This document shows positions 3,095 through 61,831 of a stretch of DNA of 64,000 nt, one piece after another. Every line of letters starts with the position of its first letter. The stretch's first letter is position 1. Under the pieces are notes generated by a model that was not told the origin of the DNA, did not search any database, and saw nothing but the letters and a program-made list of their open reading frames with translations. This DNA is from Escherichia coli. Its GTDB lineage: Bacteria > Pseudomonadota > Gammaproteobacteria > Enterobacterales > Enterobacteriaceae. The stretch lies in the NCBI RefSeq assembly GCF_003019035.1, contig NZ_CP027448.1; one strand, 5' to 3'. A program made the position numbers and the translations under genes.

Positions 3095-3345
3095 GATGAT
3101 ATTCCGAAGAAAAAAGTCAGTCGGACTGATTATTAATGATGAAAAGATTAATAACCGTTAAATTCCGGCTTCGCCGGCAACACTTCACGGTCGCACAAAG
3201 AATTTGCACAACCGCTCAGTGTTTTCATATTTATTTCGGAAACGCCGGGGAGAAATAAAATTTATTTTATTTCTTTCCGGGGTTGGACAACGAGCAAAGC
3301 GAGGCGTCAGTCAGGAGGCCGGTCAGACCAGCCTCCGGAAGATAA

Positions 3346-4077
3346 TCAGAGAATATTTGCGATTGATTTGGCCAGCTGGTCTTCGAGAACAGGCTTCGCC
3401 TCTTCAAATTTCAGGTTAACCTTGTTCGCACTGGAGACCACACGGGTCTGATATTTATGCTGGTTACCTGTTTCAGTACTGGTCTGAATTTTCGCACCTG
3501 AAGTGCCCTGACGCAGGGCGGCAACATTATCTGTTGTCACCGTTGTCTTAGTACGCTCTGCAATCTGCACATCCGTGATCATGGTATAGTTCACATCTTC
3601 CACCATCGCATCTGCAGCCATACCCACCAGACCAGCAGCAAGGCCCACACCGAGTGTGGCACCGGCAGAATTGGAATTATATCCGGTAATACCGGCACCT
3701 AACGCTGCACCAACAGCTGCGCCTTCATAACCACGGTTCAGCCATCCCTGAGACTCCCGCAGATCCATCTTATCGGCCTTCAGCACATTCGCCTGAATCC
3801 AGTAGTAGGCTTTATCCGGAGAAGTCACCACCTGATACCCTTTTGCTTTCACAGCATCAGCAATTTTGCCCTGCAGCCCACTCATGTCTTTATCAGACGT
3901 GTTTTTGATCTGCAGAAATACCGTGCGTTCGCTGGCGGGTTCAAGCCAGATGGTCTCACTCATCTGGGTCTTCACCTCAAGGTTACGCTTCTTGATTGCT
4001 GTGCTCATCGCACCACACCCTGAAAGGGCCAGAGTGGAACTGACCAGTGCAACCATCATCAATTTTTTTGTTTTCAT
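3346..4077 (-). CDS. traT: Surface exclusion lipoprotein TraT
   Basis: 243 aa, lipoprotein signal [21 protein letters not shown]; position between traS and traD as in F. Confidence 0.95.
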
Positions 4078-44453: not shown

Positions 44454-46682
44454 TTATCTGACTACAATATTGATATCGTTTTCCGCAACAATCAGCATCA
44501 CGGCAGGTAAACCCTCCACACGCATTTTCTGGTGTAATTTTTTGATTAAATTATCATCTTCATTACTGGCTTTTGCGGAAAAGCCTTGTGGATGGGAGTG
44601 CCATTCGCCAACATAATCGACAACACGAGCGGTCAACTGGTGAACCCGTTCTAATGCTTCTTGTTGTCCCGCTTCTCCCCGGACAAAGGAGGCTGGAGAG
44701 GATTTACTGTCGATAGGTTCAGGGAGCACGTCAACCAGAATAATCGTTTTGTTCTTAAAATCTGTTATGCCAACAATTGCACCTCCTGTTTCATTAGGCA
44801 GTGCCTGTAAGCGGGTGTGCTGCAATTTTTGCGCTAAGCCCTGGTCATATTTAACAACCCATTCGCCAGAAATTATAGATACCACGGAATAGAGTTCAAT
44901 TTCATGTGCATCCATCGCGCCTGATATTTCATCAGATACCCAGATACACAATCGAGCATTTCCTTTGAGTGCAGTCTGGCGAAGTTGGCGTGAGAGGATA
45001 CCGGCATGAACATGAATACATTCACTGGACATACGTACAGAAATATCCCGACATCCACCACCGACCCAACGATCGCCATAATTGTGCTGTAGGTGAGTAC
45101 TTCCCCACTCACTGCTCAAAATTGCCCGATAGTATTGCCCCTCAATTGCATCAATTCGGCATTGTCTGTCTACATCCTCCATTAACATCACGCTAGACTG
45201 ACCCGATGGAGTCAGAAACAGGCTAACTATTCTGGGTATATCATCTTTTAACACTAGAGTCCTCGGCACCTCAAAGGTGGTACTGACATCCACAACTAAG
45301 TCTGCCTCATTCATTGCCTTAGCAATATCATCATCGTCATCAAGAATACTTTTATGGATCGCCTGAGGGAGGGGCTCATGCGGATAAATAGATTTGGCAA
45401 TATGCTGAATAATATGGGGTTTTGAGACTCCAATATGACAATCAAACCCAATATGGCGAGACAAATTATGTGGAAGAAGCCGATCTGGATCAATAAAAGT
45501 CCATGTCCCCCACCCCATTCGAATCCAAATATCAGCCAATGTACTACCAAGAGCGCCAACTCCAGCTAAAATACCTCGAAAAGCTGCACTCTCTGAATCA
45601 ACAGCAGATATGTCTCTCGCATGTGTGGCCTTCATAGCCGAACGTATTTCAACTGGTAAAAGCGGTAATTGTCGCCACTTGGTACTAATTGATCCGCCAA
45701 GAAGCCGTACGCGATGCTGTACTCCTCGCTCATTTTTTGGCGCCAGCATATCTAGTGCAGTGGCAAGTTCACCGAGTGAACTTTGCACAACATAGCCCAT
45801 CACATCCGTACGTTCTGTTTCTCCGTTTCTTAGACGGGGGATCCAAAGCAGGATAAGTAAGCCTTCTCCTTTACCAGACGTTGGGCGGATACCATCACTT
45901 GGTATTGCTTCATAAACAGCGTCAGTTAGTGGTTTTAGGAGCTCACTTCCCCATTCATTAAGTTGTTCTTCTAATTTTCCCAGATTATCCGGGTATGTAG
46001 CCACCGTAGAAACATCGACAGGAGGAACAGCAATAGTTAATAAGCGAAATGGCTTAACGCTTGAGGTATCTTGTTCTGGTACAGCCCTTAAAATAATCGG
46101 TCGCCCCTCACTGACCATCTGGAGACTGAGCTTATTGTCAGTCGCGTGATGATAATCGGGGTAATTGGCTGGCAAAATGAGCTGATAGGGACTCAAATAA
46201 AAAAGTTGCTCAAGTGGCTGATCTTCTCGATGTAGATGCAGTTCGGCCGATTCTCTAAGCCACCAAAAAATGCGCTCAAGGAATCTCTCGGGGGTCCAAC
46301 TGCGCTCAACTGCGCTCCAGGAGGCCTCATATAGGCAAAGAATTCGTGGTGAGCCAGGTTCTCCAGCATGCTGGTGAGAAAGAACAGGGAAATCTTTCCG
46401 CAATGCATGAACCAAGATAGGTATGCTTGATTTGGGATTGACCTCAATAGCCAATCGTTCTTTACGACGAATACGGGCTTGATTACCAGAAGCCACAGTC
46501 CCATCAGCAGCATCAATGATTAGATATTCCGAGCGGTTATCATTTATTTCAGAAAATCGTAATTCTCTGACTGTGACGTAAGGATGATTCTCGCATGCTT
46601 TAAGCAGCGAAATCGTTTGTGGATAAAGGCTATCGCGCCCCGATGAATCGAGGCGCTCACCCAATTCGAAATATTCGATCAT
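44454..46682 (-). CDS. Multidomain E2-like / E1-like (ThiF) / JAB-JAMM peptidase fusion protein (742 aa)
   Basis: HQH..10 aa..C (E2-like), GILAGVGALGSTLADIW...IDPD (ThiF Rossmann), EWHSHPQGFSAKASNEDD (JAMM HxH..S..D) read directly from the translation; ATGA overlap with upstream MBL gene. Confidence 0.75.
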   Translation of the reverse strand: MIEYFELGERLDSSGRDSLYPQTISLLKACENHPYVTVRELRFSEINDNRSEYLIIDAADGTVASGNQARIRRKERLAIEVNPKSSIPILVHALRKDFPVLSHQHAGEPGSPRILCLYEASWSAVERSWTPERFLERIFWWLRESAELHLHREDQPLEQLFYLSPYQLILPANYPDYHHATDNKLSLQMVSEGRPIILRAVPEQDTSSVKPFRLLTIAVPPVDVSTVATYPDNLGKLEEQLNEWGSELLKPLTDAVYEAIPSDGIRPTSGKGEGLLILLWIPRLRNGETERTDVMGYVVQSSLGELATALDMLAPKNERGVQHRVRLLGGSISTKWRQLPLLPVEIRSAMKATHARDISAVDSESAAFRGILAGVGALGSTLADIWIRMGWGTWTFIDPDRLLPHNLSRHIGFDCHIGVSKPHIIQHIAKSIYPHEPLPQAIHKSILDDDDDIAKAMNEADLVVDVSTTFEVPRTLVLKDDIPRIVSLFLTPSGQSSVMLMEDVDRQCRIDAIEGQYYRAILSSEWGSTHLQHNYGDRWVGGGCRDISVRMSSECIHVHAGILSRQLRQTALKGNARLCIWVSDEISGAMDAHEIELYSVVSIISGEWVVKYDQGLAQKLQHTRLQALPNETGGAIVGITDFKNKTIILVDVLPEPIDSKSSPASFVRGEAGQQEALERVHQLTARVVDYVGEWHSHPQGFSAKASNEDDNLIKKLHQKMRVEGLPAVMLIVAENDINIVVR

Positions 46683-47866
46683 TGGTTTGATACACCTGCC
46701 CTAGGAGCGGCGGCCGTAGCAGCACTTACCGCAGCTGAAACAGCACCAACAATAGCGGGTATTAACTTCCCGTCTCCAGCCACTTCAAATTCAAGGAACG
46801 CTGTATCTTTAAGATCCCCCGTACAGCTAAACCAACCATCAACACTGTCCAGAATATCCTCATACTCACGCTTAGCCCGGATGCACGGTGGATCATAATC
46901 ATCATCAAGTATCTGATTGCTACTCGATACAATTGTTGCCCCGGAACGAGCCTGACCTAAAGCATTACGGGCCGCATCACAAACTTCAGCATTCTCCCCC
47001 CATTGTGACCAGCTATCATAGGAAAGTGAATGCCATGAACAATGATGCGGTGTGAGGAGAAGATCATATTCTAGTGCCTCAGCATTGCTTTTGTAACGAT
47101 CCCATAATCGCTCCCAGATGAGAACTTCTGCGTCTCCACCTAATAGAAAGTGCATAGGATTACGGGAATATGCAGAGGGCAGTATTTTCATGTTCATGAT
47201 GATACTGGATTCGTTTTTAGAAAGAGCTTCTTCCAAATATTCATCATCTTCATGTGGTGCGGGCGCCAGAAGCTGTGCGGAGAACACTTCTGAAATTTGC
47301 CCGTCAATTCTGGTGAATGTATCTCCAGCTTTGATAAGAATGGCACTCAGATCATCTGTTTTGCCATTAATATCTTCACCCATGATAAGGATTCGATTAC
47401 CGCTAGATGCATAACCATGTTCCCGCCAGTATTTTACTCGGCGCCGTGCTTCTGTATTAAATGCCTGAGCATCTTCGCAAAGTGTGTGACTTTTGGAACG
47501 ACGCCGAAAAATCAATGGTGATGACCACAATTCTCGAATAATGATACGCTTTTCTGAACGTTTCACATCGTCATCTGGATAATCTTCAGGACGGCCCAGC
47601 CAGAAATGTTTACGCAGGCCACCGCAATGATCCTGATCGGGATGACTGAGCATAAAAACATCAATAAAGGGACGATCTTTTTCATCATACTTCAATCTGC
47701 TACGTAATGCCGAGGCAACATCAGGTGTGTCATCATTGGGGTTATCAGCAGCAGAGCGAATATGTACATCAATCAGAATGGATGTGCCCCGGGTGTCGGC
47801 CAAACGTACCAGTGTCATATCACCGTTGCCGACTTGGAAAAAAGTAATTTTGGCTGCCATCGACAT
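46679..47866 (-). CDS. Metallo-beta-lactamase-fold protein (395 aa) with Ala/Gly-rich C-terminal tail
   Basis: MBL-like motifs ...LIDVH..., SHPDQDHCGG, ...TPHHCSWH...; C-terminus ...AIVGAVSAAVSAATAAAPRAGVSNQ. Confidence 0.75.
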   Translation of the reverse strand: MSMAAKITFFQVGNGDMTLVRLADTRGTSILIDVHIRSAADNPNDDTPDVASALRSRLKYDEKDRPFIDVFMLSHPDQDHCGGLRKHFWLGRPEDYPDDDVKRSEKRIIIRELWSSPLIFRRRSKSHTLCEDAQAFNTEARRRVKYWREHGYASSGNRILIMGEDINGKTDDLSAILIKAGDTFTRIDGQISEVFSAQLLAPAPHEDDEYLEEALSKNESSIIMNMKILPSAYSRNPMHFLLGGDAEVLIWERLWDRYKSNAEALEYDLLLTPHHCSWHSLSYDSWSQWGENAEVCDAARNALGQARSGATIVSSSNQILDDDYDPPCIRAKREYEDILDSVDGWFSCTGDLKDTAFLEFEVAGDGKLIPAIVGAVSAAVSAATAAAPRAGVSNQ

Positions 47867-47994
47867 CTCCTTTAGGGATACGAAAGATTGAGGTTAAGAG
47901 CATCTATTGCTAAGATACATCTAGTAATTATACTAGTCTAGTAATTAGACGTATATTTTGGACTTAAATTGTAAGTACAGGAAATTATTGATAA
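47867..47994. promoter_or_regulatory. Divergent promoter/operator region with tandem direct repeats (TCTAGTAATTA x2)
   Basis: AT-rich intergenic region between divergent MBL operon and WYL gene; repeats at about 47918-47950. Confidence 0.4.
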
Positions 47995-48849
47995 ATGAGT
48001 GATAAAATGGTGAGAACTGGTCATTGGAGCCAAGAAAGACGGCTTGAATTCATCGATTTTCGCCTACTGTGGGAAGGTCGGCTTAACCGTGCAGATCTCA
48101 CGACATTTTTCAGAATTTCAGTTCCGCAAGCCTCATTAGATTTGGCAAAATATCAAGAAGTTGCGCCAAACAACATGGTGTATGATCGAACTCAGAAGGC
48201 TTACATTACGACTCCTGATTTCAAACCTGTTTTTACAAGCTTTGACAGTAATCATTACCTGAATGAACTACTTGGGCGAGAAAATGAAATAGTGGATCCT
48301 GATGATAGTTTCATTGGGTGGGTACCCCCGGTAGCCAGCCTTCCTCTCCCTGCCAGGAAAGTACAACCTGAAATATTGATTGATTTAATTCGAGCCATGC
48401 AAAGAAAACAGGCTTTGGTTGTTGATTATCGCTCAATGACTAATGAACCAGCAATTCGTACGCTATACCCAACAGCATTTGCACATGATGGGCATCGGTG
48501 GCATGTTCGTGCTTATTGTTTTAAGTCTACAATGTTTAAAGATTTTGTTCTTGGTAGGTTTTTTAAAATCGTTGAATTTGTTTCCCCACCGACATCAATT
48601 CCACAAGATGTGGACTGGAATACATTTATTGACGTGGTAATAGGTCCAAACCCTAACTACGATATGAATAAACGGCTATCTATTGAACATGATTATCAAA
48701 TGGTAAAAGGAGAAGCAAAAATCCACATACGTAAAGCGCAATTATATTATCTTAATCGTCGATTAAATTTGGATGTAAATAGCGATGGTTCAATAGATGA
48801 CAAACAGCAGATCATCATGCTCAGAATAGACGAGTCTAAAACCTATTAA
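47995..48849 (+). CDS. HTH-WYL domain transcriptional regulator (BrxR/CapW-like)
   Basis: 284 aa; central ...HDGHRWHVRAYCFKSTMFKDFVLGRFFKI... fits the WYL pattern; N-terminal HTH-like region. Confidence 0.7.
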   Translation: MSDKMVRTGHWSQERRLEFIDFRLLWEGRLNRADLTTFFRISVPQASLDLAKYQEVAPNNMVYDRTQKAYITTPDFKPVFTSFDSNHYLNELLGRENEIVDPDDSFIGWVPPVASLPLPARKVQPEILIDLIRAMQRKQALVVDYRSMTNEPAIRTLYPTAFAHDGHRWHVRAYCFKSTMFKDFVLGRFFKIVEFVSPPTSIPQDVDWNTFIDVVIGPNPNYDMNKRLSIEHDYQMVKGEAKIHIRKAQLYYLNRRLNLDVNSDGSIDDKQQIIMLRIDESKTY

Positions 48850-48861
48850 GGGAATATTTAT

Positions 48862-49380
48862 ATGAATGCGAATGATGTTAACAAACGGAATAAAGAATGG
48901 ATGATTGTAATCATTATTATCTATCTTTTTATTTTGTTATGTATAGCAACATACGCTATTGGGGCTATGTCTCTAGGTTGGTTACCAACACCTTACGCAC
49001 CATTAAGGGTGCCACTGATGTGCGGAGCAATTGCCTATATAGGTGGTTGTTTATATTGTTTTCGTGCAATTTACCTCAATAAATGTATTAGAAAACAATG
49101 GGATCCAGATTGGCATGTATGGTATTTCATTCGCCCACTGACCAGTACAATCGCAGGTGCTATCAGTTATTTATTCCTTAAGGCGGGGTTGTTAGTTTTG
49201 GAGTCTAGTTCCAATGTAGGAGCTAGTGAAATGGGTTTCTTTGCGCTGGCATTTATTGCTGGTTTTAACGTCGATAAATTTGTCGCAAAAATCGAGGAAG
49301 TTGCAAAGGCTGTCTGGGGTATTGAAAAAACTCGAAGCTCGACTAATAATGATGCGAAAAATTCGGAAAAAAAAGAATAG
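48862..49380 (+). CDS. Small membrane protein (about 4 predicted TM helices, 172 aa)
   Basis: Hydrophobic segments throughout; 12 bp downstream of the WYL gene. Confidence 0.55.
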   Translation: MNANDVNKRNKEWMIVIIIIYLFILLCIATYAIGAMSLGWLPTPYAPLRVPLMCGAIAYIGGCLYCFRAIYLNKCIRKQWDPDWHVWYFIRPLTSTIAGAISYLFLKAGLLVLESSSNVGASEMGFFALAFIAGFNVDKFVAKIEEVAKAVWGIEKTRSSTNNDAKNSEKKE

Positions 49381-49426
49381 TCTGGATGTATTTAAATTAA
49401 AATGAAATTAGTGCTGAGCTATTTTA

Positions 49427-50746
49427 TTACTTTCTCTTATTTCCTGGGGTCGCGCCCCCAGTGAGCTTATTCAAAAGTTTGTCCACTGCCTGTATATCGT
49501 TTTCTACAGCGGCTTGTTCGTCATCAGTCAAAGGGATTTCCTGCATCAGCTTGAGTAGATTCTGGCGACCTTCCAAGTATTGTGCTTCAGATGAAGATTT
49601 TGGCATATAAAATGAGCATTTTGCACATGCCATCCGATGGGGGCATTGCTCAAAAAAGTCATAAGTACAGAAACCGTGTCCAAGATCATAATAACGCCAT
49701 GGCTTCCCGGATGCTACCAGCCCTTCAGCTATCGCGTCTTGATCAATGAGAACTGAAACCATGCGGCGATTACATTCAAAGTAACCAGCTTTATCCAGTG
49801 ATCCTGCCAACCTCGTCGGTGTAATTTCGACATAATGTCGGGTAGATTCAGGTGAAGAATGCCCCAACCATTTCTGTAGCTCAAAAATATCAAGTGGTTC
49901 CCTGGCGTTGTAAAGCTGACTGGCTATAGTGGCTCTTGCCCGATGGCTGGTGATTTTACCTCTGGCATCCTGCTCAGGTATACCAGCCTTTCTGCATAGC
50001 AAAGGGATTAGCGAATTATTAATATAACTACTGTGTACCCGTTTCCCCCTGTGCATGAACAAAAAACGGACGCTTTCACCTGTTTTAGAATCTTCCTGGA
50101 GGGGGTGGGGGTTACGAACAAGTTCCCATTGTTCGATATATTCCCCGATAATAGGGTCAACTGGCTTTGTGAATGCCGCGTAAGTCTTGCTAACGGGTAC
50201 ATCTATCAGACAGATACGGGATACATTATTTTCTTCTGGCTGTTGCCAGCGGATACACCCACACTGCATACGTAGAATTTCATCACGTCTGAGGCCTCCA
50301 AATAACCAGAGAACGCTGAGTGCTCTGACCATCTCCAGTGGATAAAAATAAGGATATGCAACACAGTTTGGTAAATCCGACTCCTGCAGGTTCTGTCCGG
50401 CGTGAAGTAATTTACACCACATATCATCGGCCACAATACGAGGCTCTGGTCCAACCAGGGAAGTCAAGCTACGCGGTGCCCTGAAAACTCTTTCTGGGCT
50501 GAATCGTACAGGTATCCATCCCCATTCCTGCAAGTCATGAAAGAAAGTTCTAATATGACCCAACATCCTGGCTCTCGCTGCAGGCATCATCATTTTGCCA
50601 CGACGGTCACGATACATGCCCCCAGGGGTTGCCCATTCACCAACTTTCATTCTACAAGCGGCGGTCACCCAGACGATCGCGGTGTCCCGTGTCCAATCAG
50701 ATGGTGACAGACAGGTTGGATAGCACTCAGCTAACCAGCTGACCAC
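49427..50746 (-). CDS. Tyrosine recombinase/integrase (439 aa)
   Basis: Catalytic signature residues: ...GGLRRDE..., ...SHRARAT..., ...LGHSSPESTRHYV... Confidence 0.85.
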   Translation of the reverse strand: MVSWLAECYPTCLSPSDWTRDTAIVWVTAACRMKVGEWATPGGMYRDRRGKMMMPAARARMLGHIRTFFHDLQEWGWIPVRFSPERVFRAPRSLTSLVGPEPRIVADDMWCKLLHAGQNLQESDLPNCVAYPYFYPLEMVRALSVLWLFGGLRRDEILRMQCGCIRWQQPEENNVSRICLIDVPVSKTYAAFTKPVDPIIGEYIEQWELVRNPHPLQEDSKTGESVRFLFMHRGKRVHSSYINNSLIPLLCRKAGIPEQDARGKITSHRARATIASQLYNAREPLDIFELQKWLGHSSPESTRHYVEITPTRLAGSLDKAGYFECNRRMVSVLIDQDAIAEGLVASGKPWRYYDLGHGFCTYDFFEQCPHRMACAKCSFYMPKSSSEAQYLEGRQNLLKLMQEIPLTDDEQAAVENDIQAVDKLLNKLTGGATPGNKRK

Positions 50747-51677
50747 ACTTTAGCAAAACGTACCAACCGGACAAAATAGATGAAGGGCGAAGTACTGAGG
50801 TAGCACGCCACCGTTTGCACCATACCAGCCATTTAGTTGGTACATCAGCTGTTGCATTATATTCGCGGGGAGGACGGCGACGTTGTGTTATTCGGTAATC
50901 AACCCCTTCCTCAATAGTCCCTGATGCAGCCAGTATACGCGATAGAGTAGCTGAGGCTTCCCGGAGGGAATCCGGGCACGTTGCAGCAATCTGTTGCAAC
51001 GTGGTCACGGTGATATGGTCTAGTTGAGCATCCCTTTGCAGAAGCATTGCCATACACATGGCATTTCTGATGCCGTTGTTCCGACTATCACGAGGCACAT
51101 ATCCCAGAACCTGCATCATATTGTCAAGCTGGCTGACGGCAAAATCGGTGCTCTGTCGGCCAAAAACCTTAAGACAGAGCCGATATTGATAGAATATGCC
51201 ACAGTGTTCCAGCCGCTCAAACCCACATAGCAACCATGCTAACGCTATAACATATTGCCGACAGTTGCCGCTGGCTCCAAACCGTCGACGAAATTCCCCT
51301 TCGCTGTTGCAAATAACTTCTAACCACTCTTCTTGTGTCCAGGCCCAGTATGTTTTCCGGATGCGCTGCATCTCTAGGACTATATCGTGAATAGATGAAT
51401 TGTAGGGGGCCTTGGCCGCATGCATTTTTGTTAGCGTGTCGCGTAGTGGTAAAAGAAGGCGGGAAAGCCGTTTTTGTATATCAGGTGACCAGTTTTTACC
51501 TCCTTGCTGGAAGTGGTCGACCAATGTATCCAGTGCCGCAAGCTCGCTTTCAGAGATCTCCGATCGGGTATCCCAAAGTAGGGCAGGAAGACTGAGTGAT
51601 GTTGTCGGACAAGGCGCTGTATGTTCAGATTGCATCATGGAGAAGGATCCTGCTGTTGTAGTACAGTAAGGCGGCAA
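50727..51677 (-). CDS. Recombinase-operon middle gene (316 aa), divergent/uncertain
   Basis: Overlaps both neighbours (translational coupling); no clear R-H-R-Y motifs seen by eye. Confidence 0.55.
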   Translation of the reverse strand: MPPYCTTTAGSFSMMQSEHTAPCPTTSLSLPALLWDTRSEISESELAALDTLVDHFQQGGKNWSPDIQKRLSRLLLPLRDTLTKMHAAKAPYNSSIHDIVLEMQRIRKTYWAWTQEEWLEVICNSEGEFRRRFGASGNCRQYVIALAWLLCGFERLEHCGIFYQYRLCLKVFGRQSTDFAVSQLDNMMQVLGYVPRDSRNNGIRNAMCMAMLLQRDAQLDHITVTTLQQIAATCPDSLREASATLSRILAASGTIEEGVDYRITQRRRPPREYNATADVPTKWLVWCKRWRATSVLRPSSILSGWYVLLKCGQLVS

Positions 51678-52687
51678 GTATGCAAGGATGCGACCGTGTA
51701 ATTGAAACGACTACTCAGATCACGTGCGCTGAGATGAATATAGAGCAGAGTTGACTGGATACGACGGTGGCCAGCGAATGCAGCAATTTCGTGGATGTCC
51801 CACCCCACGCGTGCCAGTTCTGTCAGACAAAGATGTCGGAATGTGTGGGTGCTGATGAGTGGAAGATCAGCCTTAATAGCTAAACCGCGAACTACTTTTG
51901 ACCAAGTCCAGTTGCTAATAGGTTCTGCCCGATTACGCGGAGAGCGTGAGAGAAACAACGGACCGCGAGATGAGCTTAGCATACGACGTTCAGTGAGCCA
52001 TGCTGTGTAGAGTTCCCCCGTCACAGGAGAATAGGGCACAACCCGACCAAAGCGGTTTTTGGTATGCTCAGCGCGCACAGTGAGCAAGCGTTGAGAAGGG
52101 TCAATATCTCCGGTAGCTACTGTGCAAAGTTCTTCTCTGCGTAATCCGCAGTCGTAGGCCAGTGCCAGCATAAAACGAGTACGGATATCAGCTTGTCCGG
52201 CTACCTCAAGAAAGCGCAACCACTCCGCATCATCCGGGATCCACGGTAGCCGCCGCTGCAACGGCACTATACCAGCTTTTCCTTTCCCTCCGTTTTTCCA
52301 GACACCTCGTCTGACAGGATTTCTCTCCCGTATCCCCTCCTCACAAAGCCAATAGTTGTACAGTCGTACCACCGTCAGCCGGTGGCGGATAGTGGCAGCT
52401 GCCAGCTGGCGACCGGTATGCAGGCTGCGGACATAGAGTGCGACCGTATCACGTCCAGCGACAGCAGCCGTCAGGGCAACAGAGTGACAGAAAGCGAGCC
52501 AGTCATTGACGCCACGGGCATAGGCATCAATGGTGTTTGGAGCACACAGCAGGTCCTCCTGCAGGCACACCCACCGGCAAGCTGAAGGATCGGCCGACAG
52601 AAAAGGCAGCGCATCCAGCAGTTTCTTGTGCACAGCATCCCCCTTTTCGATAACAGAATGTGTTGTATGAAATATAGTCAATTCCAA
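51635..52687 (-). CDS. Tyrosine recombinase (XerC/D-like, 350 aa)
   Basis: ...CGLRREEL..., ...HTFRHLCLTELA..., ...GHRRIQSTLLYIH...; start lies 9 bp from element end. Confidence 0.85.
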   Translation of the reverse strand: MELTIFHTTHSVIEKGDAVHKKLLDALPFLSADPSACRWVCLQEDLLCAPNTIDAYARGVNDWLAFCHSVALTAAVAGRDTVALYVRSLHTGRQLAAATIRHRLTVVRLYNYWLCEEGIRERNPVRRGVWKNGGKGKAGIVPLQRRLPWIPDDAEWLRFLEVAGQADIRTRFMLALAYDCGLRREELCTVATGDIDPSQRLLTVRAEHTKNRFGRVVPYSPVTGELYTAWLTERRMLSSSRGPLFLSRSPRNRAEPISNWTWSKVVRGLAIKADLPLISTHTFRHLCLTELARVGWDIHEIAAFAGHRRIQSTLLYIHLSARDLSSRFNYTVASLHTCRLTVLQQQDPSP

Positions 52688-53977: not shown

Positions 53978-54949
53978 TTACTCACTTGACTCAGGAAGTC
54001 TTTCCAGAATACGTTTTATTGCCTCATCTATCTCCGACTGTGCCTCAGCGGAAATGCGGGAAAACTCATAAACAACAAGTCGTTTCTTTGAATCAATTTT
54101 CTTTCTTGCAAATTGGTTGCGATCTGAAAATTCTCTCAGCTTCTCAGTTTGAACCGTGCGGGTCGGGCGAACTATCAGCGATTTGCTCTCAGCTCTGATA
54201 ACAGCCAGAATTTTGCTTTTATCAATTGCCGGATAATCTGGCATGGTCTTCAACCGATGCTGAACTTTTTCCATCAGTTCTGTTACTGATCTTTGCTTGT
54301 TGTTTGCTTCTTCAGCTAGTTTCAGTAAAAAATGATAATCCGGCAACGAAATATCATTTATCACAGGGAAAACTGCAACCATTTCATCTGGCACTGCTGC
54401 GGCCTGAAACGCACGAGTCACTTTCGCAGGAGAGAGATTTTCTGCCTGAGCAATCTCTTCCTTCGTCATACTGGTTCCATACGTAACTTCGAGTCGTTTT
54501 CCCAGCTCACGCAAGCTATGCTCACGTGCGGTTTGTATGTCTTTTGCCAGTTGTCGTGCATCTGACAGTTCAATATCGTCCTTTGTAACAAGTATTTCGA
54601 ATTTAACATTGCTATAAATGCAGGCTGCCCGGCGACGTGTGCCGTCCAGGATCTCAATTCGCCCGTTGACCTCTCTCCCAATAGCGGGGAAAAACTGCTG
54701 CAGTTTTATGGTACGGGAAATGTCACTGACTGACTCAGGGGATAACATTGCCTGGTCGCGACCATTAACAGATGAATCAACAAATGTCTTCGATTCGATC
54801 TCACCGCTTAGCACAACCGTTTTCACAAATTTGGCCTGTTTACCAGATTTGAGAGTAAAGGTTTTCACATCGCCATCGCTTTCAAGCATTCGCGCAAATT
54901 CTGAATTGCTGTTGCCAAGAACTCGGCCACGAGCTAAAACTTTCCTCAT
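53978..54949 (-). CDS. parB: ParB partition protein (P1/P7-type)
   Basis: 323 aa, ParB-like HTH region; 4-nt overlap with parA. Confidence 0.82.
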   Translation of the reverse strand: MRKVLARGRVLGNSNSEFARMLESDGDVKTFTLKSGKQAKFVKTVVLSGEIESKTFVDSSVNGRDQAMLSPESVSDISRTIKLQQFFPAIGREVNGRIEILDGTRRRAACIYSNVKFEILVTKDDIELSDARQLAKDIQTAREHSLRELGKRLEVTYGTSMTKEEIAQAENLSPAKVTRAFQAAAVPDEMVAVFPVINDISLPDYHFLLKLAEEANNKQRSVTELMEKVQHRLKTMPDYPAIDKSKILAVIRAESKSLIVRPTRTVQTEKLREFSDRNQFARKKIDSKKRLVVYEFSRISAEAQSEIDEAIKRILERLPESSE

Positions 54950-56151
54950 TTTGATGCTCCACGGATATATTCAATTCGATCAAAAACAGCCTTAGTAAAT
55001 CGTTCAGCTTCAGTTCGGGCTTTTTTCAGTGCTTCAACACTTCCAGGGTAGGAAACGGGGTTTGCACTAATAATGGTGTCAAACGACTCACCACACCGTT
55101 CGAATCCGTCAAGTCGCGGCAGTGACGCATCAAGAATGTTACTTGCGTACACTTCACGCGCCAGACTATGTGACGTCTCGTGGTCACGTTTGCCGGTCAT
55201 TTTTGACATAAACCCAATACTGGCGCTGAGCCTGGGTTCCACACCTTCTTCTTCAAGGCGTTCCAGCATCTCCGGTAAACGTGTCAGGTATTTCAACGTG
55301 GAGTGAAAATCAACCTGTGCCGGTGGAGTAGGGGTCAAGAGCAAATCGCTCGCGGCCAGTCCATTCAGGAGGAACGGATCAAGGTGAGGGCCTGTATCAA
55401 TAAAGACAAAATCATAATCACCTGCGATACGGTCAATAATTGTTTTTTTGAGCACCTCAGAAGGTTTCAGACCTGGTAAATGTTCTGTAACTAATGACTC
55501 CCACTGGCTGGCGACAAAGCCGTCGTCGATCGACGCAGGGATGATATCGACGCCTGGGATAATAGTTGGGCGAATTACAGCTTCTCTCAACGTTTCTGCA
55601 TCGAGATCATTCAGCATTGCCTGGGCTGCTGTTTCAAGAACAGTACCAATGCTATGAGTGTGATCAAGAAACATAGTACTGGATGCCTGCGGATCAAGGT
55701 CAATAACCAGGATGCGGAGATCATGACGAAGCAAGTCCGGATGTACTCGTAATGCATGTGCGAGAGTGACTGTCGTGACTGTTTTTGATACACCGCCTTT
55801 AAGATTGACGACAAAAATCACGTATGGTTCTTTGTGAATATCGCGGTACTTAGGTATTTGACGGTGGGCGTAAATGTCGATAACGTTCTGAATAGTGAGA
55901 GCGTATTGCTCTACGTTGCCAACCTGCTTTTTATTGAATTCGTAACCGCTGTCCTCCATCTCTTTTACAGCAAGTTCAACGATGCGACGGCTTAACTTAG
56001 GCAGTTTTGCCACAGCATTTCTGGTATATGTCTGATGATATTGAGTCAGATTAAATTCTTTTCTCTGAGCCTCAATATCCCTGCTCATAGCCTGAAGTAA
56101 GGCACTTGCTCTGAGAGCTATGGTGCCAACACTACCGTAATCACGTCTCAT
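54946..56151 (-). CDS. parA: ParA partition ATPase (type Ia, with N-terminal HTH extension)
   Basis: 401 aa; deviant Walker A VNLKGGVSKT. Confidence 0.9.
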   Translation of the reverse strand: MRRDYGSVGTIALRASALLQAMSRDIEAQRKEFNLTQYHQTYTRNAVAKLPKLSRRIVELAVKEMEDSGYEFNKKQVGNVEQYALTIQNVIDIYAHRQIPKYRDIHKEPYVIFVVNLKGGVSKTVTTVTLAHALRVHPDLLRHDLRILVIDLDPQASSTMFLDHTHSIGTVLETAAQAMLNDLDAETLREAVIRPTIIPGVDIIPASIDDGFVASQWESLVTEHLPGLKPSEVLKKTIIDRIAGDYDFVFIDTGPHLDPFLLNGLAASDLLLTPTPPAQVDFHSTLKYLTRLPEMLERLEEEGVEPRLSASIGFMSKMTGKRDHETSHSLAREVYASNILDASLPRLDGFERCGESFDTIISANPVSYPGSVEALKKARTEAERFTKAVFDRIEYIRGASK

Positions 56152-56569
56152 TGTTTTCCCCTTCCCCTAAAGATGGATTCCTTGCGCGTCAAATATGTGT
56201 AAAGCTTAATCACATTGTACACAACACAACAAAACGTACAACATTTATAACCACGACATTAAATTAATGTACGTGGCATTATATTTATCACCAAAAGGAA
56301 TAGGTAGTGCTCGCCGCAGCCTTGAGACCGAGCATCGCGAGCGAACTGGCGAGGAAGCGCAACGGCGCTATAGTCACATAATGCTCGTACGCACCTGATT
56401 TAAAGGATATTGTGGGAAACACCCAAAGTTTTCTCTGACAGTTCAGATCAACTTTTCCACATACTCACAGACTGTTTTTTAAGCTATTTTTATTCCTTTT
56501 TAAAAGTTTTCTCCTTTTTGTCCATTTTAGGATGCCCAGAGACCGCGTCATGTCTGCCTTTCAGGCCTC

Positions 56570-56700
56570 CTTTATGGGAATCACCCAGGGTTATGCTGGG
56601 AAATACCACGGATTAATATGGGTAACAGCCCGAATTTTTATGGGAAATGCCACGAGTTGGTATGGGAAACACCTCGTATTGCTATGGGAAACGCCCCTGG
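56570..56700 (+). repeat. Iteron array upstream of rep (six about 22-bp repeats, core ATGGGAAA)
   Basis: Repeats centred near 56573, 56597, 56618, 56641, 56663, 56685. Confidence 0.7.
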
Positions 56701-56744
56701 TTTAAATTCGTGTTTTATGACTGTGGATAACACGTTAATTTCCC

Positions 56745-57503
56745 TTGTTGGATGGGCTTTTGCATGACAATATGGGCGAGTTAAAAACAACCCATACGAT
56801 AATGACAATGACAATAAGTACCGCGAAAAAATCAGTCAACATTAGTCAATCCAATGAACTGACAGAAGCAGCTTACTACTTGCCGTTGCAAGCCAAGAGG
56901 GTGCTATGGTTATGCCTTATTCAGTGCTATCCACTGAAAGATGATCCTGATTCGGTATCGCCAGTATTCACAGTTCTTGTTGCTGATTATCAAAAGTATT
57001 TCAAAGTGTCTGTTGATACAGCGTCATCTGATGTTAAAAAGGGCGTCACTGCACTGGCTGAAAGTAGTGTTGTGTTTTATCCCAAAGACGGAGAGTTTGA
57101 CGAGATCAAACGGCCCTGGCTGGCTGAGGCTGGGCTAAAAAAAGGGCGCGGAAAATGGCAAATTGAATTTAATTACAAAGTCATGCCCTATCTGATGGGA
57201 CTGACCAGCCAGTTCACCACGTATTCACTCTATGACTGCGGAAAAATAAACAGTGTTAGGGTCATTCGACTGTATGAAAGCCTGTGCCAGTACCGTTCCA
57301 GCGGAGTATGGGTTACTACTCAGGAATGGCTGTCAGAGCGATTCATGCTTCCTGAATCGCAAAGATCAAACTTCGCTGAAATGAAGAGAACGTTTATCAA
57401 TCCGGCACTGAAAAAGATAAACGCAAATACACCACTTAAAGCCGCAATGACACAGAATGAAGATGGCAGGTTAGTCTTCACCATTGTTGATTCGAAAAAC
57501 TAA
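56745..57503 (+). CDS. Iteron-binding replication initiator (RepFIB-like)
   Basis: 252-aa ORF flanked by iterons on both sides; true start may be upstream non-ATG. Confidence 0.7.
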   Translation: MLDGLLHDNMGELKTTHTIMTMTISTAKKSVNISQSNELTEAAYYLPLQAKRVLWLCLIQCYPLKDDPDSVSPVFTVLVADYQKYFKVSVDTASSDVKKGVTALAESSVVFYPKDGEFDEIKRPWLAEAGLKKGRGKWQIEFNYKVMPYLMGLTSQFTTYSLYDCGKINSVRVIRLYESLCQYRSSGVWVTTQEWLSERFMLPESQRSNFAEMKRTFINPALKKINANTPLKAAMTQNEDGRLVFTIVDSKN

Positions 57504-57529
57504 CCAGGTTTGTTTACCATAATAATGAA

Positions 57530-57620
57530 CCTGGGCTATTTCCCATACCAGCCCAGCGACACACACTAACCAGGCCTGTTTTCCATTCTATGGAAAACTT
57601 GGTGTGTTTCCCATAGTCTG
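57530..57620 (+). repeat. Downstream inverted iterons (TTTCCCATA)
   Basis: Copies at about 57538 and 57607 in inverted orientation; further copies at 58130-58175. Confidence 0.55.
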
Positions 57621-58189
57621 GGCAATGGGTTCGGGGTTCTGGCGGTATCATCCCGGGCAGATCTCAACGCCCTTGTATTAATTCCCCGCACCGTTTCAGA
57701 GTAAGCACCCTTTTTAGAGCGTAGTGTAAACCCCTGCTTACACTACGCTCTAAAAAGGGCGCTTACAACTGCTCGTTAGCCTATGAATAACAATCAGAAA
57801 GTACCATAACAGACCCGAAAAAAATGAAATATAAGAGAAGATCAGCGGGTGAAGAAAAAGTTCAAAAAATGGCTACCGGGGAGGAAGGAAAGTACCGGAT
57901 GGAAAGAGTCCCCACGAAAGCAGACTGACAGACATCACAAATCCCCGGGAGGAGACTTGTGTATAAGAGACAGCTCAGATACAGGGAAAGTGCAGAATGG
58001 CAACTATGATGTCTGGCGGCAATGCGAGTTCACCGGAACGATACATAGATTCTGTTTACCTCTCTCTCAACGAGTTTAGTCTCCAGGATTCCCGGGGCGG
58101 TTCAGTCTGGCGACTCATCCTAATCATGCCTGTTTCCCATCCAACGGGAAAACCTGGGGTATTTCCCATATACTGGCCAGAGCATTTTC

Positions 58190-58996
58190 TCAGGATAATT
58201 GTTTCAGCATCACAACCGCATCAGATTCCGGCATCGCAAACTGCACCCGGTGCCGTGCAGCCACATCCAGTGCAAACACCTTCGTGTAGACCTCCGTTGA
58301 GCTGATGGACTTATGCCCCATCAGGCTCTGCAGGACCTTCAGCGGTATACCGGCATACAGCATGTGCATCGCATAGGAATGGCGGAACGTATGTGGTGTG
58401 ACCGGAACAGAGAACGTCACACCGTCAGCAGCAGCGGCGGCAACCGCCTCCCCAATCCAGGTCCTGACCGTTCTGTCCGTCACTTCCCAGATCCGCGCTT
58501 TCTCTGTCCTGCCTGTTCGTTTATTACGCCGTTCCATGGGGATTTTCAGTGTGGCCACCATCGTCTGCAGCTGGCTGACGTACCAGGCATCAGAGAGCGG
58601 AACCAGCCGGTGAGTCTGCTGACCGGCGGGCATTCTTCCTGCCGTCCTGGCTGCTTTTTCGGTCCGTTGTTTCAGGGTCGCAAGCTGCACAAACGGATAC
58701 GGAGGCGCGAGCGAAAAATCCCCCCGCGTCAGCGCCAGTGCTTCATTAATGCGCGCACCGGTGTTCCACAGTGTGGCCAGCAGCATCTTGCGGCGCAGAT
58801 CCGGGACGTAATGGAGCAGGGCACTCACTTCCGGAGCCAGCAGATATTTCGGCAGTTCATCATGGACCATCGACATCTGGCGAAGTGCCAGAGCTGCCGG
58901 ATAATCAATGACAACAGGAAGTTGTGGAGACTGTCCGGCAGAATACACTGCCGGTACCATGGCTGCAGACTGGCTGTGTATAACGGAGCCTGACAT
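58190..58996 (-). CDS. resD: ResD-like tyrosine recombinase (multimer resolvase, 268 aa)
   Basis: ...HTFRHSYAMHMLYAGIPLKVLQSLMGHKSISSTEVYTKV...; downstream of ccdAB as in F. Confidence 0.82.
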   Translation of the reverse strand: MSGSVIHSQSAAMVPAVYSAGQSPQLPVVIDYPAALALRQMSMVHDELPKYLLAPEVSALLHYVPDLRRKMLLATLWNTGARINEALALTRGDFSLAPPYPFVQLATLKQRTEKAARTAGRMPAGQQTHRLVPLSDAWYVSQLQTMVATLKIPMERRNKRTGRTEKARIWEVTDRTVRTWIGEAVAAAAADGVTFSVPVTPHTFRHSYAMHMLYAGIPLKVLQSLMGHKSISSTEVYTKVFALDVAARHRVQFAMPESDAVVMLKQLS

Positions 58997-59522
<526 letters not shown>

Positions 59523-61831
59523 AATGCACCTCATCTTACATACTCTCTGTACATCATTAAGTATACACCAGTATTACGCTATAACATGCCTCCGGAAACG
59601 GAATATTGTTATCTGGCTATTATTAACACAATCATCAATAACTGACCTAAAAAGTGATCATGGAAATAATAACCGTCAATGTAGTAACCATGATAAATTA
59701 CAGGATGACTGTTTTTCTATGATCCGATTTTTATGGGATTCAGGATTTTCCGGAAGTGAATCAGGATCAGTGAATAAGCGAAGCGATCTTTTCTGCCGCT
59801 GATGACTGACTCGGGAACACGGGAAGAAACACAACATAGAGCGTCATGTCAGCGAAGCGTGACACCACATCCTGTAAAAGCGGACCAGCGGGCGGCAGCG
59901 AAGGATCTGCGGATCCGGAACTACCTTTTTTCGGATCTTATTAGTGTAGAAGAACGATTGTTGCGGTGAGGGGATTATTGCTTAGGAAGCAAAATTCAAA
60001 ACTGACTAAGCCAGAAATAGCAACAACAAGATAAGGAAATTTTCCCCCTCAGCCCCTGCATGCCGTGAGGGGGAGCAACTACCCAGCTACAGTTTTCATT
60101 TTATGATACGTCTTCACTAGGTAATACCTGTGAACTGACAGAGTCTTTATGGAGTGTATGGCGGACCTAAATTTGATCCCTGAAAACTGTCAGCGCTGCG
60201 AGGACGAAGAAAGTATTACGGCTAAAGCCGTAATACCTCCCCATCCAGCTTCAAGCTATGTAGAAACTTATGTGGGTAGAGCAGTCCCGACAGGGCAGTA
60301 CCGCATTGACAGGCCGTCAGGGCCGCTTACGAGCTTGTATGACAAGGGGGCCGTCTGGATATAGCGAATTATTGTACGGTAAGCCTTTTTTGAACACCTT
60401 ACCTATTGCTATAGAGGGAAACTCCTACGTTATACGCCGCTTTCAGGGGATTCGACCTTAATGAGACAACTCAAATATGATCGACAACTTAAACGCGATA
60501 GCTGCTGATAAAATCAATCCATTACGCGTTTCAATTGATTAAATAATGCACTTAATGTACAAAAATTTCCGATCTCAAAACTGAACCCTAAAGATACCAG
60601 GCATCTCCCCCAGGAAGCGCCCTCATGCGTTTTCCTGTTCCGCCTCTGCCACCTACCTTCTGTTTCATACTTGTTGTATTATTGTTTTTTGTTTTCAATC
60701 CCCAAGGAGACGTCGCTATATGACTGTGCGGGAGACAGAGGAAAACATTGAACAAATCTTCCCTGAGCTTTCGAACTTAATTGATATTATTAATAAATGG
60801 CTTTCCCATGGAAACATTGATCCCGAACTGGCACACTTCATCATTTATCTTCTTGATTACCTAACCACCACACACAAAAGCATATAAAAAATTTCCTTGC
60901 ACATCCATTTCTTTGCGAATATTATTATCCCCGCTGAATATGATTCAATATCGCACGCTACTCATCCATCCCTGGATAATGAGTACATAGGTTGAAGTTT
61001 CAACACCCCCACTACGGGGGTGTTTTTTTACCAATAAAAACAAATCACACCATCGCCATACCCTGTTTGCCAGACATTGATTGGTAAATATGCGTAACTC
61101 GCTATAATACAAAAAGAAAAATCAGAACCAGAAACTAGTTTCCAGATAAAAAACACCCTCCCGAAGGAGGGGACAGACACATTCATATTTCCCAAAACAG
61201 GAATTTTTATTTTTATGACGCATTAATGAAGTTACTTCATCTCCAGTAGATTAACTTCATTTAAAGTGGAGATCAATCATATTTATTACGACTCTAAACC
61301 ATTACAACAACCACAATAAGATATCACCTCAAATATAAAAGACAATTCTTACAAAAACATTCTGAAAACAAAAAAAATACAGATAAACACCAATAAAAAC
61401 AGAAAACTCCTACAAGATTAAAGATGGTAAAATAATATAGAACTGTTAGTCTAATGGAGAAGGCGCATCTAATTCAGAGCAATCTATTGCGAAGAATCAG
61501 AACAACAGTTATCCACAGATTCTGGGGATAACTGCAGAAAGAAGATGTGCAAGAAAAGTCAGCCCCCCGGGAAAGTATTCTTTCTGTTGGGAATCCAATC
61601 ACTATAGGATTCGCGAAGATGGTCAGTACCCGAGTAAAGTAGTTTACACTCTTACTGGCGCTGAACCGAAAAGGCAAAAAAGAAGTTCCAGGCCTGTATC
61701 TGACTAAAAGTGAAGACGCTAACTTCTGGCTATCGGTCCGCAAAACCGTGGTGTGGATGGTCTGACTGTTTTCCCATAAGGCAAACCAGCCTTTGAACAC
61801 ATAAAATATTTTTCTGGACTTTTATATAAAT

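Follow-up and report, generated by a model that had tools for sequence, protein, structure and literature searches.

Iterons on both sides of a plasmid rep gene in Escherichia coli point to a Rep_3 replicon related to IncR

Short repeats of about 22 bp flank a rep gene within a 64-kb stretch of Escherichia coli DNA (the window). The initial annotation took this layout for an origin array and a copy-control array resembling those of RepFIB/P1-type replicons. To which family of replicon does the locus belong, and what might the downstream repeats do?

Upstream of rep, six tandem iterons occupy 56571-56702 on the + strand with exact 22-bp phasing, confirming an earlier count of six copies of about 22 bp. 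Read in register, the copies start at 56571, 56593, 56615, 56637, 56659 and 56681, the last ending at 56702, and extraction of their consensus gave nnTATGGGAAAcaCCnnGGTT. A repeat search combined with matrix scoring also revealed a lone seventh iteron on the same strand, ATTGTGGGAAACACCCAAAGTT (56409-56430), which the initial annotation had missed. This copy lies 162 bp before the tandem array, beyond an AT-rich region, and scored 23.2 bits in a leave-one-out matrix and 23.8 bits with an independent matrix.

The independent matrix was built from only the nine iterons of Klebsiella oxytoca pMB3888B_1, a 94%-related replicon. It recovered 10 of the 13 copies around rep (seven upstream and six downstream) at about 20-29 bits, the seven upstream copies scoring 19.8-26.4 bits, and its best score elsewhere in the 64 kb was 15.2 bits. 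Under leave-one-out scoring, all 13 copies reached 18-27 bits. Across the window, the exact core ATGGGAAA is found 11 times where 2.95 occurrences are expected, and none of 100 shuffles reached 11. Seven of these occurrences fall within 56640-58169, on the + strand upstream and the - strand downstream. The iteron repeats are genuine and specific to the rep locus, and the two arrays are indeed oppositely oriented, as first described. A further iteron-like site inside parB (54828-54849) scored 20 bits with the window matrix and 14.6 bits with the independent matrix; it was left out of the count because the latter score lies within background.

Downstream of rep, six reverse-complement copies form three pairs, each of a weak and a strong iteron on the - strand, in units of about 67 bp. 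Unit 1 (57502-57549) comprises a weak copy at 57502-57523, which overlaps the rep stop codon, and a strong copy at 57528-57549 (16.0 and 27.9 bits, respectively, with the independent matrix). Unit 2 (57568-57617) comprises copies at 57568-57589 (weak, 12.8 bits) and 57596-57617 (strong, 27.1 bits), with an embedded palindrome TTTTCCATtctATGGAAAA at 57580-57598. Unit 3 (58122-58172) likewise pairs 58122-58143 (weak, 9.5 bits) with 58151-58172 (strong, 29.4 bits) and holds the palindrome TTTCCCATccaACGGGAAA at 58133-58151. By score alone, the three weak copies cannot be told from background; their support comes from a constant position, 26-29 bp ahead of each strong copy. Inverted copies had previously been placed at about 57538, about 57607 and 58130-58175, which captured the three strong copies and one weak copy and overlooked the weak copies at 57502 and 57568.

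Unit 3 ends 18 bp from the stop codon of resD (58190-58996, - strand), a tyrosine recombinase gene (Pfam Phage_integrase) convergent with rep. Might 58122-58172 then be a recombinase-binding or res-type site of the ResD multimer-resolution module, and so lie outside the replicon? The iteron pair of a K. oxytoca relative (L004) also abuts a resD-like gene, and F carries TATATGGAAAT at the aligned position after a 97%-identical resD. We nevertheless regard this reading as very improbable, given that no other site in the window fits the Rep iteron consensus as well as 58151-58172 and that unit 3 is, over its full length, a copy of unit 2 with 73-82% identity. The K. oxytoca pair, moreover, begins at the rep stop codon, so the adjacency to resD reflects a short intergenic space. 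In F, moreover, rfsF is presumably located upstream of ccdA, within the oriV1 region, and not after resD, which also counts against a ResD site here.

Units 2 and 3 are separated by 482 bp (57623-58104) in which foreign DNA and insertion-sequence (IS) ends form a mosaic; this insertion is not part of the replicon. Positions 57620-57687 share 79% identity with an intergenic region on a Salmonella plasmid unrelated to this one, 57767-57976 correspond to an IS4-family end and 58049-58104 to an IS3-family left end; together these rule out the segment as an ancestral spacer. A hairpin with a 29-bp stem (z=-11.6) occupies 57701-57766, where an Rfam scan of 56100-58300 returned only spurious microRNA-model matches far below gathering scores. 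GTCTGG is present at both insertion edges, and once the 482-bp segment is disregarded the downstream iterons are regularly spaced (26/40/28/39/29 bp). When a synthetic junction lacking 57623-58110 was searched against a plasmid collection, no uninterrupted control array was found among the matches listed. All 30 of the 30 matches listed aligned as two pieces about 1.1 kb apart, and these 30 plasmids therefore carry the insertion.

The rep gene itself (56802-57503, + strand) is an intact open reading frame encoding a Rep_3-family initiator of 233 aa from the ATG at 56802. RefSeq places the start at 56772 (243 aa), while in the GenBank record CP055749 the coding sequence opens at the position matching 56802. 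Relatives show homology from residue 19 of the longer, 243-aa product onwards. The start is likely 56802; the RefSeq start at 56772 falls inside a probable operator (see below). Within the Pfam set PF01051 and PF21205, the protein matched Rep3_N at 104.7 bits (cut-off 22.4, 7e-30) and Rep3_C at 42.5 bits (cut-off 21.1, 8e-11), and so possesses both winged-helix domains, WH1 and WH2. Its best solved relatives are the F RepE structures 1REP and 2Z9O (E=3e-31), which are complexes of RepE with iteron and operator DNA. At the level of primary sequence, amino acid identity is 70.4% to IncR RepB, the closest Rep, about 55% to IncN RepA and 32% to F RepE; the RepE equivalog model NF010305 (NCBIfam) scored 133 bits against a cut-off of 342.

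Is the locus a member of the RepFIB/P1 families, as had been suggested? The general plan is alike, in that P1 and RepFIB (P307/F) also have an origin set of iterons ahead of rep with a control set behind, and RepFIB RepA also matches Pfam Rep3_N. However, BLASTP found no significant similarity of Rep to P1 RepA (E=89) or to the RepFIB RepA of F, where the alignment spanned 24 residues at E=0.42, and P1 was absent from the tblastn matches in a phage collection that includes the P1 record. The iterons of both are unrelated to those described here. P1 has five iterons in oriR and nine in incA, six inverted and three direct, whereas all six downstream copies here are inverted. Additionally, five Dam sites are annotated in the P1 origin, which has Dam-site heptamers; the present origin lacks such heptamers and has a single GATC, located at 56446-56449 between the lone copy and the tandem iterons. 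With IncR, IncN and RepE as its closest relatives, membership of RepFIB/P1 is scarcely credible and was rejected at family level on pairwise BLASTP and repeat comparison. The module is an ordinary iteron plasmid replicon, a relative of IncR, IncN and F (RepE) and not of RepFIB/P1. Of the original interpretation, the origin-plus-control layout, which is also that of the experimentally studied F and P1 replicons, stands; the family assignment does not.

The features of a Rep_3, RepE-like replicon are present: WH1 and WH2, tandem 22-bp iterons beside rep, an AT-rich region and a DnaA box. The repeats themselves fit a Rep_3-family iteron organisation. At the outer left edge of the origin, on the + strand, lies a conserved element of about 55 bp, GTGCTCGCCGCAG...GCGAGCGAACTGGCGAGGAAGC (56305-56360), which occurs once in the window. 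Counterparts that align with it are found to the left of the K. oxytoca relative's origin and as an inverted pair flanking both ori2-repE-incC in F and the IncR replicon. Considered as a structured single-strand site, the element folds no better than shuffles (z=0.16 in the window). Two degenerate DnaA-box-like 9-mers, TTTTCCACA and ATACTCACA (56453-56469, + strand), carry one and two mismatches, respectively, to TTATNCACA, and by analogy appear to occupy the place of the tandem boxes TTATCCACTTATCCAC found in F, IncR and K. oxytoca. Next comes an AT-rich stretch (56460-56530; GC 0.25 in 56460-56519), a candidate DNA-unwinding element positioned as are the AT-rich blocks of F ori2, IncR, IncN and the K. 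oxytoca relative.

Between the iterons and rep there is a perfect DnaA box, TTATCCACA (56722-56730, - strand), and IncR has DnaA boxes at the equivalent place; TTATNCACA is matched eight times in the window against 2.1 expected. Closer to rep, an operator-like palindrome, TATGGGcgagttaaaaacaaCCCATA (56771-56796), has the iteron 5' half as both its arms and is the sole such palindrome in the window. Its position is kept in the K. oxytoca relative (3447-3471) and in IncR (L005, 2724-2749), and F has an analogous half-iteron inverted repeat ahead of repE. We infer that this palindrome is a candidate site for autorepression by Rep dimers. A promoter scan of the + strand ahead of rep found no sigma-70 promoter at the tool's threshold; candidates identified by eye, TTGCTA-17-TTAAAT (56679-56707) and TTGCAT (56760), match about 8 of 12 consensus positions. 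Judged from sequence, the AT-rich stretch, the DnaA boxes and the half-iteron palindrome complete a putative origin of the F ori2 type.

Comparison with known replicons places the locus nearest to IncR. Both have the TATGGGAAA iteron core, an upstream 22-bp tandem array, inverted downstream copies, an operator-like palindrome, the flank element of about 55 bp and a resD neighbour, and their ParA proteins are related (57% identity). IncR reference plasmids, such as pKpn-35786cz and those of the pK245 type, carry repB with iterons. The differences are nonetheless clear. Downstream of rep, IncR carries a regular tandem array of 36-bp repeats with about 10-14 copies, as against three pairs of about 67 bp here, and the downstream repeats of IncR have been described as Rep-binding iterons of 36 bp in 10.4 copies (PMC9412624). 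The 3' halves of the iterons differ, and in IncR resD, rep and parAB are co-directional, whereas rep here is inverted relative to both neighbours. The MOB-suite type also differs, the module carriers checked being typed as rep_cluster_2313 and never as IncR, whereas the relative with 70% Rep identity is typed as IncR. Cross-reaction with IncR incompatibility is possible because the TATGGGAAA core is common to both, although the iterons diverge in their 3' halves.

The IncN replicon (repA of the pCU1/R46 type) shows the same upstream 22-bp iterons and inverted downstream iterons, and the TATGGGAA core, together with the plan of direct upstream and inverted downstream copies, is common to IncN, IncR and the present locus. 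It differs in having about 25-30 downstream repeats of 37 bp, an iteron 3' half of GCCCACCTT and no parAB or resD adjoining in the locus examined. These downstream repeats are RepA-binding iterons of 37 bp in 24.3 copies, as summarised in PMC9412624 with reference to Papp and Iyer 1995. In the K. oxytoca relative, one lone iteron (3091-3112, equivalent to that at 56409-56430) and six tandem 22-bp iterons lie upstream, and two inverted copies lie downstream, directly after the rep stop, as unit 1 does here.

The RepFIA layout of F resembles that described here in order: DnaA boxes, an AT-rich block, direct iterons, a half-iteron operator, rep and an array that is inverted throughout, ori2 having four iterons and incC five, all five of them inverted. 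This match of direct iterons before rep and solely inverted iterons after it is architectural only. Although the RepE fold class is that of Rep here and F shares a nearly identical ccdAB-resD neighbour module, F differs in its unrelated iteron, TGTGACAAATTGCCCT, in its SopA, which has only 27% identity to the ParA here, and in the opposite orientation of its rep module relative to resD and par. Since inverted iterons follow rep in IncR, IncN and F alike, the layout is typical of the clade.

The neighbouring genes complete this picture of the locus. Divergent from rep are parA (54946-56151, - strand; Pfam HTH_54 and AAA_31) and, with it, parB (53978-54949), while ccdB and ccdA (58997-59534) lie with resD, convergent with rep. 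ResD is 97% identical to F ResD and 90% identical to the integrase abutting rep in the K. oxytoca relative. About 100 F-type plasmids of E. coli carry this module with at least 99% identity, and carriers span F-type plasmids of E. coli, Salmonella and Klebsiella, including ColV plasmids of avian-pathogenic strains. None of the five carriers checked had this replicon alone, each also possessing IncFIC, FII, FIB or FIA. Co-occurrence suggests that the module corresponds to MOB-suite rep_cluster_2313. The replicon could be silent or auxiliary, because every checked carrier has another replicon; the FIB replicon of F has been described in these terms (PMC11983097).

Such multi-replicon carriage fits an alternative in which the upstream array is a working origin and the downstream set is a decaying remnant of a longer 36-37-bp tandem array of the IncR/IncN type and no longer exerts copy control, any control coming from autorepression and the co-resident FII or FIC replicon. 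Three strong copies are left, compared with about 10-30 in IncR and IncN (PMC9412624), the three others are weak, IS debris splits the array in 30 of 30 near-identical plasmids among the matches listed, and the K. oxytoca relative retains just two downstream copies. Decay would not predict, however, that the strong downstream copies, at 27-29 bits the best in the window, outscore every origin copy. Weak and strong pairs with embedded palindromes are kept in all three units, and F functions with only five incC iterons. We therefore consider outright loss of copy control unlikely, while the array may be partly decayed, being far shorter than those of IncR and IncN and split by an insertion. The downstream inverted copies probably serve copy control.

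It is thus highly likely that 56305-58172, in an F-type plasmid of E. coli, holds an entire theta replicon regulated by iterons, of the Rep_3 (RepE-like) class and a sister lineage of IncR; its mechanism may be modelled on F, P1, RepFIB and IncN. By this analogy, Rep monomers would bind the six helically phased iterons at 56571-56702 and the outlying copy at 56409-56430, and Rep, acting with host DnaA bound to the boxes nearby, would open the AT-rich region at 56460-56530 for replication to start. Rep dimers on the half-iteron palindrome (56771-56796) would repress rep transcription. The downstream inverted iterons would form a locus for copy control and incompatibility, corresponding to incC of F and incA of P1. 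This locus would titrate Rep and, by contacts between Rep molecules, pair with the iterons of the origin (handcuffing). Acting in cis and between plasmid copies, handcuffing would switch initiation off as copy number rises. Pairing of ori2 with incC by handcuffing is reported as experimentally established for F (FIA) in PMC11983097, with reference to Uga et al. 1999, and the downstream iterons of FIB are reported there as the controlling set. The 482-bp insertion of foreign and IS-derived sequence has parted the third pair from the other two; this need not inactivate that pair, because handcuffing acts at a distance.

A bolder combination of these elements seems doubtful to us. It would make the module an uncharacterised incompatibility group (rep_cluster_2313) of F-type and ColV-type plasmids of E. 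coli, with a minimal three-pair control locus whose embedded half-iteron palindromes bind Rep dimers and which works despite the 482-bp split. Recombination at the conserved elements of about 55 bp, which flank the F and IncR replicons as an inverted pair, would have turned the ori-rep-inc cassette around with respect to par and res. If true, such flipping would point to a general way in which replicon cassettes are inverted or exchanged.

The locus raises no new biological question. Its value is mainly practical: at present the replicon carries no annotation beyond 'replication initiation protein' and no type beyond a cluster number. Its identity as a sister of IncR, together with the mapped origin and control repeats, would aid replicon typing. 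The mapped repeats would also assist incompatibility prediction and the design of plasmid-curing cassettes, for which downstream controlling iterons have been argued to be the part to use (PMC11983097).

Repeat searching identified six tandem iterons in register from 56571 to 56702, spaced at exactly 22 bp, and a seventh, isolated copy at 56409-56430. The same search recovered six reverse-complement iterons 3' of rep, starting at 57502, 57528, 57568, 57596, 58122 and 58151. Across the 64 kb, 2.95 exact matches to the core ATGGGAAA would be expected and 11 were counted; seven of the 11 reside within the 1.5 kb of the iteron region, where the strand changes over across rep. As a guard against circularity, the matrix used to score each copy was made from the remaining twelve, giving values of 18-27 bits. 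An independent matrix was then derived from another plasmid, K. oxytoca pMB3888B_1, using its iterons alone. With this matrix all seven upstream iterons scored 19.8-26.4 bits and three downstream iterons 27-29 bits, compared with a top score of 15.2 bits in the rest of the window. The 22-bp phasing and independent-matrix scores bear out the six tandem upstream iterons of the initial annotation, and its inverted copies downstream of rep are likewise upheld and extended to six, three of them strong and three weak.

The three weak downstream copies reached just 9.5-16 bits with the independent matrix. They are believable as iterons not by score alone but because each lies 26-29 bp ahead of a strong copy, and the resulting weak-plus-strong units (57502-57549, 57568-57617 and 58122-58172) are alike. 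When an inserted segment is disregarded, the start-to-start spacings are 26, 40, 28, 39 and 29 bp, and the array resolves into three units of approximately 67 bp with two iterons apiece. Short palindromes of divergent half-iterons are embedded in these units at 57580-57598 (TTTTCCATtctATGGAAAA) and 58133-58151 (TTTCCCATccaACGGGAAA) and could provide additional sites for Rep dimers. An iteron-like 22-mer within parB (AATCTGGTAAACAGGCCAAATT, 54828-54849, minus strand) scored 20 bits with the window-derived matrix; it is probably a chance occurrence, since it scored only 14.6 bits with the independent one.

Upstream of rep, GC content falls to 0.25 at 56460-56519. A perfect DnaA box is present at 56722-56730, and two degenerate boxes (56453-56469) take the place of the tandem TTATCCACTTATCCAC found in F, IncR and K. 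oxytoca. The palindrome TATGGGcgagttaaaaacaaCCCATA, which occurs once in the window (56771-56796), lies between the iterons and the conserved Rep N-terminus, with arms that correspond to the 5' half of the iteron. The replicons of K. oxytoca and IncR carry it at the same position, and its counterpart in F is the half-iteron operator ahead of repE. The RefSeq start of rep (ATG 56772) falls inside this operator-like palindrome. Counted from that start, homology to relatives extends only from residue 19 onward, and the gene in GenBank CP055749 starts at ATG 56802; for these two reasons 56802 is the more likely start. No plus-strand promoter before rep passed the promoter scanner. The RefSeq IncR repB CDS (288 aa; IncR plasmid L005, 2615) likewise begins within its iteron array and is therefore probably over-extended.

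Rep comprises Rep3_N (WH1) and Rep3_C (WH2) domains, and its nearest solved structures are F RepE (1REP, 2Z9O), followed by pPS10 RepA. Comparison with plasmids by tblastn returned approximately 104 records with at least 95% identity; identity was 93.8% to K. oxytoca pMB3888B_1, 70.4% to IncR, approximately 55% to IncN and 32% to F RepE. Against the NCBI RepE equivalog model Rep scored 133 bits (cut-off 342). Judged by these identities, IncR is the nearest named group. The initial annotation had likened the arrays to the origin and copy-control arrays of RepFIB/P1-type replicons. Its observation was correct and its interpretation right on function, but the family assignment fails, since BLASTP gave E-values of 0.42 against the RepFIB RepA of F and 89 against P1 RepA, and P1 was missing from the phage tblastn matches even though its record is in the searched collection. 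Five carriers of the module were checked: they share the MOB-suite label rep_cluster_2313 and were never typed IncR, and from this co-occurrence we infer that the label belongs to this Rep. Another replicon is co-resident in all five, so the replicon may be auxiliary or silent.

Many complete E. coli F-type plasmids, pRHB07-C12_2 and pSE11-2 among them, match the region at 99.9% identity over 1,951 bp, and in 95 plasmid records a single match spans at least 80% of the query. In the K. oxytoca relative, rep is preceded by a single isolated iteron, tandem DnaA boxes, an AT-rich block and six 22-bp iterons, and is followed by two inverted iterons reaching from its stop codon to the end of a resD-like gene. 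Upstream, IncR possesses approximately five 22-bp TATGGGAAA iterons and IncN five copies; the inverted copies number some 10-14 in IncR, as a 36-bp tandem array, and approximately 30 in IncN, as a 37-bp array. These downstream arrays have been termed iterons or Rep-binding sites (PMC9412624). F carries four ori2 iterons and five incC iterons, the latter all in the opposite orientation, whereas the incA iterons of P1 are mixed (six of nine inverted, three direct). The architecture is thus clade-wide, and the window conforms to the F, IncR and IncN pattern. In F (L003 5680-5720), TATATGGAAAT lies directly past the resD stop and aligns with the last iteron of the window, TATATGGGAAAT, in the stretch 58140-58190; it may be a relic of a window-type iteron in the ancestry of F.

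The downstream array is split by a 482-bp mosaic insertion (57623-58104) that is not replicon DNA. It comprises a piece (57620-57687) 79% identical to the intergenic DNA of an unrelated Salmonella plasmid, a hairpin with a near-perfect 29-bp stem (57701-57766; z=-11.6 for a DNA fold of -30.9 kcal/mol), the end of an IS4-family element (57767-57976, with CTGTCTCTTATACACAAG on the minus strand at 57959-57976) whose terminus resembles the IS50 outside end, and an IS3-family left end (58049-58104, TGAACCGCCCCGGGAATCC... on the minus strand, ending at 58104). The hexamer GTCTGG is present at either edge. The hairpin is confined to plasmids with this replicon; Rfam microRNA matches to it are spurious. 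When plasmids were searched with a synthetic uninterrupted array junction, none of the 30 near-identical matches listed had an uninterrupted array and all 30 carried the insertion, which appears fixed within this E. coli lineage. A 7-bp tandem duplication (GGGTTCG, 57627-57633) is shared by the window and its closest plasmids and is missing from ColV-type carriers (99.2% identity) such as p1ColV5155. Two plus-strand ORFs (57849-58079 and 57997-58305; 76 and 102 aa) span the IS remnants together with the final iteron pair; neither matched Pfam, and both are almost certainly spurious.

On the minus strand, parB (53978-54949) and parA (54946-56151) come first; rep follows on the plus strand, and resD (58190-58996), ccdB and ccdA come next, again on the minus strand. 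ResD and its F counterpart share 97% identity, and ParA shares 57% with IncR ParA and only 27% with F SopA; from these identities the locus reads as an IncR-like rep and par unit joined to an F-like ccd-resD unit. In F and IncR, resD, rep and par are all co-directional, whereas rep in the window is inverted relative to both neighbours (54946-58996); rep and resD also converge in the K. oxytoca relative. Left of the origin lies a conserved element of approximately 55 bp (GTGCTCGCCGCAG...GCGAGGAAGC, 56305-56360) with no significant fold. It recurs in F (L003 6025-6090 and 7570-7632), IncR (L005 2293-2326 and 4031-4064) and K. oxytoca (L004 2993-3047), adjoining Rep_3 replicons whose Reps share merely 32-70% identity, and may mark a joint at which replicon cassettes recombine. 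F and IncR have it as an inverted pair around the replicon, whereas the window has a single copy, the par-proximal variant. An old inversion between such elements as the origin of the rep flip remains speculation because no second copy lies near resD. Upstream of the partition genes, 44454-52687 holds annotated ThiF-family adenylyltransferase, metallohydrolase and WYL-domain genes (44454-48849), possibly a defence-type cassette, followed by three tyrosine recombinase genes (49427-52687).

From anatomy and homology read in the sequence, we infer the functional steps. Rep monomers at the phased iterons, together with DnaA, would open the AT-rich block, and Rep dimers at the palindrome would repress rep. 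The downstream inverted iterons would form a control locus of the incC/incA type, acting through titration of Rep and Rep-mediated pairing with the origin (handcuffing); that the array is short and interrupted is a caveat on this mechanism. Experimental grounds for these steps come from relatives: handcuffing between ori2 and incC has been reported for FIA, and an FIB replicon is displaced by its downstream iterons alone and not by the upstream set (PMC11983097). The class to which the replicon belongs is well understood; the replicon itself is catalogued but apparently uncharacterised.
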